This document shows positions 12,571-14,774 of a stretch of 31,844 nucleotides of DNA, piece by piece. Each line of letters starts with the position of its first letter. Positions within the stretch are counted from its first letter, which is position 1. The notes beneath the pieces are model-generated. The model made no database searches. It saw only the letters and a program-made list of their open reading frames with translations, and was not told the DNA's origin. The translations under genes were made by a program, and so were the position numbers. Source of the stretch: Alphaproteobacteria bacterium (GTDB lineage Bacteria > Pseudomonadota > Alphaproteobacteria > RF32 > CAG-239); the NCBI GenBank assembly GCA_024408895.1, contig JAKSUO010000001.1, forward strand, positions 1 to 31,844, in the 5' to 3' direction.

Positions 12571-12599
12571 TGGACAAAAACAAAAAAATATGCTACTAT
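12571..12599 (+). promoter_or_regulatory. sigma70 promoter of the 12631/13513 operon
   Basis: TGGACA (12571-76), 17-nt spacer, TACTAT (12594-99), with an extended-10 TG and an A-rich spacer. Confidence 0.65.
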
Positions 12600-12630
12600 C
12601 AGGAAAAGATAGTTGCAAGGAGGCAAAACA

Positions 12631-13488
12631 ATGGAAAGTGATAATGAGGATATTGTGGCAGAAGCTGGCGAAGAGATGGAAGCGACAGCAGAAGAAGTCG
12701 TAGTTGAAGAAAAGAAAGAAGAGAAAAAAATAAATGCCAGCAACGAAGGATTGACCATAACAGACGATAACGACGCAGAAGAAGAAAAAGAAGAAGAAAA
12801 TGTAAATAGAGAAGATCCATTGAAACCTCTTAACGTTTCGTCTAGCGAAAATGAATCTGAATCGCAATTGGAAAATCAACCGAGCGAGGAGGAAGCGCAA
12901 TGGATAAAAGATAAAGTTGCATATTACAGTCGCCTGAGCGATGAAGGACAAATTGAAAATTATCAACGAGATACGTCCGAGTCTGAGGGACTTTCTGTTG
13001 AGTTTAACGGGGCTAAAATCCACTATTCTTCACCAACAGATGTGTCTGTTTCGCCGGATGCAAGCTATAAAGTTTTTGATGTGATGCTGAATGAGCCGGA
13101 TAATAAAGGTCGGCCGGTTAATTTTTCCGAAAGTATGAAACCGGAAATGGCCGCGCGCTTGTATGCCGCTTGTATTCTAAATGGAAATAAAGTTATTGGT
13201 AATGTTCCGCAATTAACAGATGAGATGAAAACACAGTTGAAAGCGGAAATGGGGAATGATGCTTATGCTCAGTTTGAAGAAAAGTTGTCTGCCCGCACAC
13301 TGAATGAGCAAGAGCAGAGTTCGGCGCAGCAATCAAATGAAAATGCGGATCTGGTTGCGGAAAGTCTCAACCGAGTGAGAGGAAAAATTCATAATAGACA
13401 AGGAAATACAACGGATAACGAAGTCCAGCCGGATCGGAACAGTAATAATGTCATGATGACAAGAGGTAGCAGTCGTGACGGTCGTTAA
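12631..13488 (+). CDS. Hypothetical protein: acidic disordered N-terminus, LPD7-like domain, Arg-rich C-terminus
   Basis: AAGGAGG SD 8 nt before ATG 12631. Very E/D-rich first 90 aa; motif MLNEPDNKGRPVNF...MKPEMAARLYAACILNGNKVIGNVP; ends MMTRGSSRDGR. Confidence 0.8.
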   Translation: MESDNEDIVAEAGEEMEATAEEVVVEEKKEEKKINASNEGLTITDDNDAEEEKEEENVNREDPLKPLNVSSSENESESQLENQPSEEEAQWIKDKVAYYSRLSDEGQIENYQRDTSESEGLSVEFNGAKIHYSSPTDVSVSPDASYKVFDVMLNEPDNKGRPVNFSESMKPEMAARLYAACILNGNKVIGNVPQLTDEMKTQLKAEMGNDAYAQFEEKLSARTLNEQEQSSAQQSNENADLVAESLNRVRGKIHNRQGNTTDNEVQPDRNSNNVMMTRGSSRDGR

Positions 13489-13512
13489 TCTTCAACATAA
13501 AAGGAGGATGTT

Positions 13513-14721
13513 ATGGTTGATTTCAGCGGAGAATTTAAGGAGTTTTTGAAAAAATACAACTCTTCGGCGTTGGCTAAGGTTGAAGATAGTCAGACACCTC
13601 CGGATGTTTTGAATAGCATTTATAACGAGTATGCCAAAACTTTTGAGGTTTGGCAGAAGTTGCCGCAAGCGCTGCGTGACAGATATACTATTGTTCCGCA
13701 AGATATTATGGATGCTGCGGCACTAGGTGAAATAGAAACATTGAAAACAATGGAATATGATCCAACTCTGAAAACAGCGGAAGAAGCTCGTGATAAAGTT
13801 GAGGAAGCGCATGAAAGAGCAGCCAAGTTCCCTGATATTGTTGCACCTGCCGCAGTTGCAGTATTTACAACGGCAGTGGTTGCCGGTTATTCGGATCAAG
13901 CTTCGCATGATTTGGCAAAAGAACGTCAATTCAGTGATGAAATTTGGGCAAAAGCAAAAGGGCGTAAACTTACCGGCGAGGAAGTCAAACGTTTGCACGA
14001 GAGCAGAAAACGTGTTCACGATATTATTGCCAAAGATTGGGCGGAACATCAACCGGAAAAAATGTTGGTTCGCACATTTGCCTTGTTGAATCGTCATCCG
14101 GATAAAAAGGATGAACTTTTGCCAAGAATTGCGGATTTGATTCAGAAAATTGAAACTGAAAATCGTCAGGGCGAATTGTTAAAATATTTAAATCATCCGG
14201 TTGTTCAAGCTAAATTGTCGCGATTTTCTAAGGAAACGCTTGATTTGATAAACAACAGTTTGTTGAAAAATGTCCCGACCGAGCTGCAGAACGGCTACTT
14301 GGCGAACACAATTCCGTTGAAAATTAAGATGGCCGAATTGGCTGACGCGGATATTCAAGGCAAAACGGATATTCAGGCACGCATTAACGCCATTGTGGAA
14401 GATGCAAAGGCGAATGGTATCGGTATTGATTTCAAAAACTATTTGCCTCATTCACAATATCCGATGTCGGCCGATGTTCGCCAACAGTTAATGATTGCTT
14501 GTTGTGTAAACGGGGTGCCGTATCGCTCACCGGTTTCTGAAAAAATCAATTTGAATTCGGAATATTTCAGAGGTTTGCCGTCTGATATTCAAACCCTTGT
14601 GACTTCAAGAGAAATTCAGTTGGCAAAAGAACAAATTGTCAGCAAAGAACGTATTGCGAGTACTAAGGAACTTTATGCCAATATGCCTTCCATTATGGCA
14701 AGGCGTGGCGGACGGGAATAA
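13513..14721 (+). CDS. Hypothetical helical protein with C-terminal LPD7-like domain and Arg-rich tail
   Basis: AAAGGAGGA SD; motif AIVEDAKANGIGIDF...MSADVRQQLMIACCVNGVPY; ends IMARRGGRE. Confidence 0.82.
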   Translation: MVDFSGEFKEFLKKYNSSALAKVEDSQTPPDVLNSIYNEYAKTFEVWQKLPQALRDRYTIVPQDIMDAAALGEIETLKTMEYDPTLKTAEEARDKVEEAHERAAKFPDIVAPAAVAVFTTAVVAGYSDQASHDLAKERQFSDEIWAKAKGRKLTGEEVKRLHESRKRVHDIIAKDWAEHQPEKMLVRTFALLNRHPDKKDELLPRIADLIQKIETENRQGELLKYLNHPVVQAKLSRFSKETLDLINNSLLKNVPTELQNGYLANTIPLKIKMAELADADIQGKTDIQARINAIVEDAKANGIGIDFKNYLPHSQYPMSADVRQQLMIACCVNGVPYRSPVSEKINLNSEYFRGLPSDIQTLVTSREIQLAKEQIVSKERIASTKELYANMPSIMARRGGRE

Positions 14722-14739
14722 GCCGAAATTATCCGAAAT

Positions 14740-14774
14740 AAAAAAAGGCGCAGTTTTAAAACCGCGTCTTTTTT
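14740..14774. terminator. Bidirectional intrinsic terminator
   Basis: A7-GGCGC-A-GTTTTAAAAC-C-GCGTC-T6: a GC stem flanked by A and T tracts, between convergent genes. Confidence 0.8.

Follow-up and report, generated by a model that had tools for sequence, protein, structure and literature searches.

The window analysed here, 31,844 nucleotides (nt) in length, is the largest contig (JAKSUO010000001.1) of assembly GCA_024408895.1, an alphaproteobacterial genome of the order RF32 (1.25 Mb in 204 contigs, 38.6% GC, 95.7% complete). The locus of interest has flanks of a housekeeping character, with PBP2, RodA, holA and leuS upstream and an NMO-family gene downstream (Pfam assignments). Between them lie the two open reading frames (ORFs) that concern us, ORF A and ORF B, preceded by a third gene that we call gene U (Table 1). 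A first-pass annotation, made from the sequence alone, had described ORF A and ORF B as a stand-alone operon of two orphans and as candidate effectors of a chromosomal type IV secretion system (T4SS), in which an LPD7-like domain and a basic C-terminal tail would act together as a secretion signal. Our analysis confirms and extends the observation and supports that interpretation in part. It indicates that the domain, the tails and the secretion system are real, that secretion of the pair would be a proposal, and that the labels "orphan" and "two-gene stand-alone operon" are not tenable.

Table 1. Features of the ORF A/ORF B locus, with positions counted from the first letter of the window (aa, amino acids).
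Feature	Position	Strand	Remarks
Gene U	11401-12543	+	Upstream, lineage-specific, 380 aa
Promoter-like site TGGACA-17-TACTAT	12571-12599	+	TG precedes the -10 hexamer; 9/12 positions match
Shine-Dalgarno AAGGAGG of ORF A	12617-12623		7 nt before the ATG
ORF A	12631-13488	+	285 aa counted from the ATG (the listed frame has a TTG 18 nt upstream); acidic low-complexity N terminus (residues 1-83), LPD7-like domain, polar linker, basic tail
LPD7-like domain of ORF A	12880-13305	+	Residues 84-225
Stretch of ORF A aligning with genuine LPD7	13024-13218	+	
17-residue motif of ORF A	13135-13185		
Hydrophobic-basic C-terminal tail of ORF A	13444-13485	+	NNVMMTRGSSRDGR
Shine-Dalgarno AAGGAGG of ORF B	13501-13507		5 nt before the ATG
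ORF B	13513-14721	+	402 aa; helical N-terminal region (residues 1-286), half LPD7-like module, disordered basic tail
Helix-strand-helix-strand module of ORF B	14377-14523	+	Residues 289-337
17-residue motif of ORF B	14464-14514		
Disordered C-terminal tail of ORF B	14632-14718	+	Residues 374-402; end, NMPSIMARRGGRE
Hairpin with flanking A-run and T-run	14741-14774	both	Between the convergent ORF B and NMO-family gene

Comparison of their sequences shows that ORF A and ORF B have a homologous module in common, with a similarity that goes beyond chance. An identically spaced motif of 17 residues, preceded in both proteins by the element [ML/IV]-x5-[KN]G-x2-[VI]-x-F, had already been pointed out in the first-pass annotation, and both were found where it had placed them. 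The motif lies within the most conserved block of each family, and the regular expression L..AC..N[GDEN] matches ORF A and ORF B alone among the 5154 six-frame ORFs of the genome. The likeness could in principle be a short motif that arose by chance, with no common domain behind it. This would fit a pairwise BLASTP of ORF A against ORF B that was not significant (E = 0.38), a full-length hhalign comparison of the two families that was weak (probability 10%), and a search with the ORF B hidden Markov model (HMM) that did not recover ORF A. However, when the profile comparison was redone with independent, domain-only profiles, the B-only profile aligned with the A-only profile over 51 columns (probability 85.6%, E = 5.6e-6), spanning a helix, strand, helix and strand in the same order on both sides, with a 7-residue insertion on the B side. 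In an unfiltered search with the A-only HMM, ORF B ranked third among the ORFs of the genome (E = 0.055), behind ORF A and a third paralogue, ORF C, which is described below. In addition, protein P0049 in the match list of the combined profile reads, by eye, as an intermediate, and the basic tails are also common to both proteins. We regard a chance motif as very improbable, and that explanation as already largely refuted.

The domain of ORF A is a remote relative of LPD7 and not a member of the Pfam family (PF18821), because structure, language-model features and profile-profile comparison agree while the Pfam model never scores. An AlphaFold2 (AF2) model of the 142-residue domain, built from a 26-sequence alignment, reached a predicted local distance difference test score (pLDDT) of 94.4 and a predicted template modelling (TM) score of 0.87; along the chain, a helix and three strands are followed by helix, strand, helix, strand and a last pair of helices. 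The best match among AlphaFold DB clusters is a [quoted passage not shown] (E = 2.5e-4, TM score 0.71, root-mean-square deviation 3.1 over 144 aligned residues), for which the LPD assignment comes from the protein name, with the LPD type unspecified. The next match is a MobA/VirD2-like relaxase (E = 1.3e-2), and a TraI relaxase follows lower down. A shape search of the ESM Atlas led to a cluster with relaxase members (TM score 0.58), and by ESM language-model features PF18821 occurs in 69 of the 100 nearest clusters, with a top score of 0.89 and 182 shared features. Furthermore, we aligned ten genuine LPD7 segments from other Alphaproteobacteria as a reference. Against these, the ORF A family gave an hhalign probability of 80% (E = 1.4e-5, 63 columns) in the register expected for the domain, S-x-E-F...Y-L-A-[AC]...G...P. 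Pfam, the check that had been proposed at the outset, came out negative for every family member: the PF18821 model (gathering cut-off 27 bits) matched neither ORF A nor ORF B at E ≤ 10, nothing in the six-frame genome at E ≤ 1, and none of 33 family members at E ≤ 0.01. An HMM built from the ten genuine segments gave no match either. Among solved structures, a Foldseek search of the PDB returned no match for the domain model, and the best VIA-align score against 48,161 chains (Z = 5.0) lay inside the noise range.

The proposal that both proteins carry an LPD7-like domain therefore stands for ORF A, by fold, ESM features and hhalign, and only in part for ORF B. The full-length AF2 model of ORF B (mean pLDDT 80) has helices at residues 287-301 and 320-333 and strands at 304-305 and 337-338. 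These correspond to the second half of the ORF A domain (helix-strand-helix-strand). A direct hhalign comparison of the ORF B family with genuine LPD7 was weak (E = 0.0068, probability 5.7%), and the link of ORF B to LPD7 runs mainly through ORF A. The ORF B model had no fold match in the PDB by Foldseek, a Pfam scan of ORF B was without match, and the ESM Atlas gave nothing usable for its N-terminal part. Set beside LPD7 itself, the domain has the same order of elements in its alpha/beta core, and some genuine LPD7 segments also read "MYLAC". In contrast to LPD7, the proteins described here are chromosomal, in a housekeeping context and in a genome without a relaxase match; they have an EPDNKGRP loop and an AC-x2-N-G signature that are specific to this family; and ORF B lacks the first half of the domain. 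Where the family has its invariant Cys, genuine LPD7 segments have either Ala or Cys, and the role of this residue would be structural rather than catalytic.

The basic tails of these proteins, which usually finish in Gly-Arg, are conserved features and not accidents. Against a background of ORFs of 200 aa or more, in which 50 of 752 proteins (6.6%) end in Arg, this residue closes 13 of 29 proteins of the ORF A family (45%), 38% of the ORF B family and 55 of 64 in the ORF C family (86%). Likewise, the last 15 residues have a net charge of +0.4 in the background and of +2.1, +1.9 and +3.4 in families A, B and C. Arg occurs within the last three residues of 13 of the 16 ORF B family members (81%), where the block NMPS[IVL][ML] is conserved along with the terminal basic end. 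Among ORF A orthologues of the same genus, a recognisable C-terminal peptide is kept (for example, ETMARLT-x-KFG-x-GR/K or ILKMQRGGR) and the linker is variable; this polar linker between domain and tail is rich in Gln, Asn and Ser. The tails that had been noted on the two proteins are thus conserved across their families, and the suggestion that they are unstructured is borne out for ORF B, whose last 29 residues have a pLDDT below 50, which predicts disorder. Elsewhere in the genome, a 537-aa protein without a family match (C145:3191-4804) has a Gln-rich stretch followed by a GYERGSR end and no detectable LPD7-like domain. Genome-wide regular-expression scans for further tail-bearing proteins were too unspecific and were dropped. 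Among genuine LPD7 ORFs of other Alphaproteobacteria (L023-L032), the last residues are basic in six of the seven that have their stop within the locus (for example, ...HSKKR, ...SPLQR, ...KRNQRGG and ...KKSNSR), which, in this small sample, fits LPD7 proteins being T4SS substrates.

Homologues were found for both ORF A and ORF B, which removes them from the class of orphans. For ORF B there are 13 homologue clusters, alike over the full length down to 37% identity, with the conserved blocks HPMSA-x-LRQ-x-LMIACC-x-N-x-VPYR and, at the C terminus, NMPSIMA...GR. ORF A has close copies as well as distant homologues, and the latter are alike only in the central block VS-x-DA-x-YKVFD-x-ML-x-EPDNKGRP...RLYAAC-x-LNGN-x3-G-x-VP. 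Orthologues of ORF A in the same genus have frames of 291-1107 aa, ORF A itself being the shortest member, and the lengths of ORF B and ORF C are conserved. A combined profile recovered 34 representative proteins among 1.84 billion, with sizes of 111-1104 aa, a range that leaves out one 1877-aa repeat protein, apparently spurious. Scans of ORF A and ORF B against Pfam and NCBIfam brought up nothing meaningful. No significant Pfam domain was found in the 33 family members scanned, which gave stray weak matches only, and a relaxed Pfam scan of ORF C, the ORF A orthologues and the gene U orthologues returned nothing.

A scan for paralogues, as had been suggested for this pair, brought to light a third one with a basic tail. 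ORF C is about 650 aa long. Its copy in this genome, next to mnmE/mnmG, is truncated at a contig end (C162:2-697) and has NYIMRSYLGR as its last residues. A complete orthologue is protein P0053, encoded at L020:6403-8352 on the minus strand. Throughout the ORF C family an HExxH motif is invariant (65/65 clusters; H245, E246 and H249 in P0053), and the domain sits near the C terminus, followed by a tail rich in Gln, Asn, Ser and Arg. A phmmer search of the PDB with ORF C gave no match. By ESM features, its N-terminal part has a weak likeness (0.82-0.85) to clusters with some XVIPCD, DUF6782 and Peptidase_M91 members.

Our survey of the order covered 283 species genomes of about 1.0-2.0 Mb each. 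The ORF A-type domain was present in 180 of these, in 20 of the 24 genera, usually with two matches in genomes of the same genus. A sample of 149 genomes from elsewhere in the class yielded a single borderline match. Genera g3 (0/36) and g20 (0/11) have VirB4, and the ORF A-type domain was undetected there at E ≤ 0.001; the family has either been lost from them or diverged beyond the profile. Some of the homologue records are titled "MAG: Alphaproteobacteria bacterium", and, from the names of these metagenome-assembled genomes, the lineage is apparently gut-associated. Taken together, the best explanation is that ORF A, ORF B and ORF C belong to a modular protein family that is specific to one alphaproteobacterial order and defined by the remote-LPD7 domain.

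The virB and virD4 genes that a secretion role would call for are present in the genome, which encodes VirD4, VirB4, VirB10, at least one VirB2-like pilin and VirB6-like proteins. Specifically, VirD4 is split over two overlapping contigs (C117 and C70), VirB4 is on C139, VirB10 lies inside a 1432-aa frame, and there are three VirB6/TrbL-like genes. In the segment C139 5812-18438, a TrbC/VirB2-like pilin gene, several similar small ORFs, an ORF of 96 aa and VirB4 lie together; behind them come five ORFs (356-1107 aa) that matched no family. The T4SS genes are scattered over contigs C139, C35, C113, C31, C70 and C117; this scatter and the multiple VirB6-like genes are reminiscent of the Rickettsiales vir homologue system. 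In agreement with the earlier remark that no relaxase lies nearby, relaxase families PF03432, PF03389 and PF08751 were unmatched anywhere in the genome, an absence that an assembly of this completeness leaves unproven. Across the order, VirB4 was matched in 272 of the 283 genomes, with one match in nearly all. VirD4 is present in all four of the higher-quality genomes without a VirB4 match (4/4), and G241, the one high-quality genome that has the domain and no VirB4 match, has both VirD4 and VirB10. Possession of a T4SS seems, on this evidence, to be a core trait of the order. In the relative G240, VirD4 has an acidic tail at its end. An ORF of 328 aa in the same genome (L037:17-1003) ends 3 nt before the virD4 start, and its product has a long N-terminal half of low complexity, rich in Asp, Asn and Lys, and a C-terminal half that looks folded. 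A complex prediction that paired G240 VirD4 (130-740) with ORF A (84-285) scored 0.21 against a mark of 0.34, which is evidence neither way. We found no literature on type IV secretion in RF32 Alphaproteobacteria.

Given these components, we favor the reading that ORF A, ORF B and ORF C are T4SS cargo with a bipartite signal made of domain and tail, to which, arguing by analogy with known effectors, we assign a rough probability of 0.45. The domain and the tail together would mark the proteins as substrates of a chromosomal VirB/VirD4 system without a detectable relaxase. The folded domain would dock on the coupling protein VirD4 or on an adaptor, and the basic tail would be required for transfer, as in BID-plus-tail and XVIPCD-plus-tail signals. 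As payloads, the proteins would bring their variable regions: a zincin-like region with an HExxH motif in ORF C, a helical domain in ORF B, and next to nothing in the short ORF A of this genome. Binding, secretion and target are what we infer from this comparison. Co-option of an LPD7-like domain is plausible because LPD7 resides in relaxases, which are themselves T4SS substrates (PMC5512222, PMC8740702). The cargo reading also draws on an apparent effector-like modularity, with one conserved domain on unrelated regions of variable length. Furthermore, the extreme C terminus is conserved, the T4SS is present, and the genes evolve fast.

Alternatively, the three proteins could be parts of the coupling complex or its adaptors, that is, domesticated relaxosome accessory proteins that recruit substrates or regulate VirD4. 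LPD7 is scarce by name in the literature, where a plasmid paper offers annotation-level statements, and LPD7 proteins are found as separate genes beside traI, traD and virD4 on plasmids (PMC13627098), as such a role would have it. It would also suit the conserved length of ORF B, which has an orthologue in each relative examined at the locus, and the position of the G240 ORF C gene about 12.5 kb from virD4. Nevertheless, we consider such a role decidedly unlikely. Outside the domain, the three paralogues are unrelated, the length of ORF A is highly variable, and ORF C has a protease-like HExxH motif. In addition, tight linkage to vir genes is lacking, and basic extreme C termini are typical of substrates.

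The chromosomal setting of the locus bears on the interpretation as well. Synteny of gene U with ORF A and ORF B extends to two relatives, which argues against a stand-alone operon of two genes. The same succession, U-A-B, is found at L004 and L022, beside leuS in the case of G240; in one relative, the slot between leuS and the NMO-family gene holds U (383 aa), the ORF A orthologue (935 aa) and ORF B (407 aa). Since this order is retained in relatives, gene U travels with the ORF A/ORF B pair, and the transcription unit may comprise all three genes. Gene U has no Pfam or NCBIfam match, no LPD7-like domain and no basic tail. Identity to the orthologues in L004 is 41% for U, 43% for A and 68% for B, compared with 90% for leuS; for G240, the corresponding values are 31%, 54% and 39%, compared with 84%. 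Other neighbors in these comparisons are 74-94% identical. By these values, U-A-B is a fast-evolving three-gene islet within a conserved slot.

The expression signals of the locus are where the first-pass annotation had put them, including the two strong Shine-Dalgarno sequences. The promoter-like site carries little weight, because the AT-rich stretch abounds in sites of this type (18 found and 9.5 expected). The hairpin behind ORF B folds on both strands with energies of -15.6 and -15.7 kcal/mol (z about -2.7; terminator scan, minus strand) and is plausible as a bidirectional terminator, as had been proposed. Downstream of the NMO-family gene, tightly packed genes for a vWA protein, a PP2C phosphatase and a Ser/Thr kinase occupy positions 16280-19165 on the minus strand; they are also kept in the relative L004.

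An argument can be made from this synteny that the domain works inside the cell as a module for binding protein or nucleic acid, with no relation to secretion, and that ORF A, ORF B and ORF C are lineage-specific cytoplasmic factors. The basic tail would then bind nucleic acid or a partner, or be a C-terminal degradation tag. The genes occupy conserved chromosomal slots beside leuS or mnmE/mnmG and not beside vir genes, inheritance is vertical over 20 of the 24 genera, and the lengths of ORF B and ORF C are conserved. LPD7 is present in DNA-processing proteins, and no VirD4-binding signal was obtained from the complex prediction. Yet one conserved module on unrelated variable regions is less typical of housekeeping factors, as is fast evolution relative to neighbors combined with strongly conserved last residues, and it is hard to see why an invariant HExxH should be coupled to a DNA-binding module. 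On balance, a cytoplasmic role seems to us somewhat unlikely.

Several points weigh against the cargo reading that we prefer. The genes lie in conserved housekeeping synteny, away from the vir genes, and the complex prediction of VirD4 with ORF A, below its mark, gave no verdict in either direction. In the ORF A family the domain is 85-340 residues from the C terminus, which makes domain and tail non-contiguous, and several members have no basic or Arg end (for example, P0021 and P0054). ORF A of this genome is almost free of payload. We know of no function for LPD7, and docking on the coupling protein is accordingly proposed by analogy. The ESM matches of the ORF C N terminus are weak and are treated as a lead only. 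Finally, co-occurrence of the domain with VirB4 was discarded as evidence: because the T4SS is near-universal in the order, such co-occurrence has no discriminating power, as genera g3 and g20 illustrate by having a T4SS with the domain undetected.

Bipartite signals of the kind that we propose have counterparts in other bacteria. In the Bartonella effector proteins (Beps), a relaxase-associated domain, BID, and a disordered basic tail occur on unrelated proteins, in a VirB/VirD4 lineage (PMC8740702). However, BID is a four-helix bundle and the ORF A domain has an alpha/beta fold, and translocation has been proven for Beps, whereas our family is known from sequence and models. The Xanthomonadales T4SS effectors (X-Tfes) offer a second comparison, with a folded domain of about 100-140 residues, a variable Gln-rich tail, a hydrophobic-positive extreme C terminus and diverse N-terminal domains. 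Their XVIPCD binds the all-alpha domain of VirD4, and the last residues or tail are required for transfer (PMC8740702). A weak further likeness is that the N-terminal ESM features of ORF C resemble clusters in which 25-27% of members bear an XVIPCD. In contrast, Pfam XVIPCD (PF20410) had no match in ORF A, ORF B, ORF C or the family members scanned, and the XVIPCD topology (alpha-alpha-beta-beta-beta) is unlike that of the ORF A domain. No immunity lipoprotein was obvious among the neighbors that we looked at (gene U, and P0120 beside ORF C), in a search that was not systematic. Membership of the family in BID or XVIPCD is ruled out by the alpha/beta fold and by the lack of Pfam matches, so that it is an analogue at most. 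In Agrobacterium, VirF and VirE2 have a disordered, hydrophilic, Arg-rich C terminus in which the last residues matter; VirF ends in Arg-Gly-Leu, and the proteins here end in RGGRE, RDGR and YLGR (PMC8740702). Unlike our family, VirF and VirE2 signals need no conserved folded domain, and their R-x7-R-x-R-x-R spacing is not evident here.

Among relaxases and polyvalent proteins, LPD7 is widespread. What we describe is a family undetected by Pfam and present in 180 of 283 genomes of the order; its members combine an LPD7-like fold with a conserved basic C terminus and with otherwise unrelated regions. The small genomes of this lineage (about 1.0-2.0 Mb) nearly all retain a T4SS, and the one genome checked is without a relaxase match. 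It is possible, and we put it forward tentatively, that the order has co-opted a divergent LPD7 domain and a Gly-Arg-terminated basic tail as the delivery signal of a core, non-conjugative VirB/VirD4 system. In our view, the system is worth an experiment. Should the domain prove to be no signal, it would still be a new, well-defined and lineage-specific domain family with a confident fold model. If the proposal is true, the known bipartite T4SS signals would be joined by one of a new kind, and BID would be followed by a further relaxase-associated domain that came to serve as an effector signal. LPD7 would also acquire a first function, recognition by the coupling protein, which would hold for relaxases and polyvalent proteins generally. 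More broadly, the effector set of a common uncultured group would become readable from genomes by means of a sequence handle.

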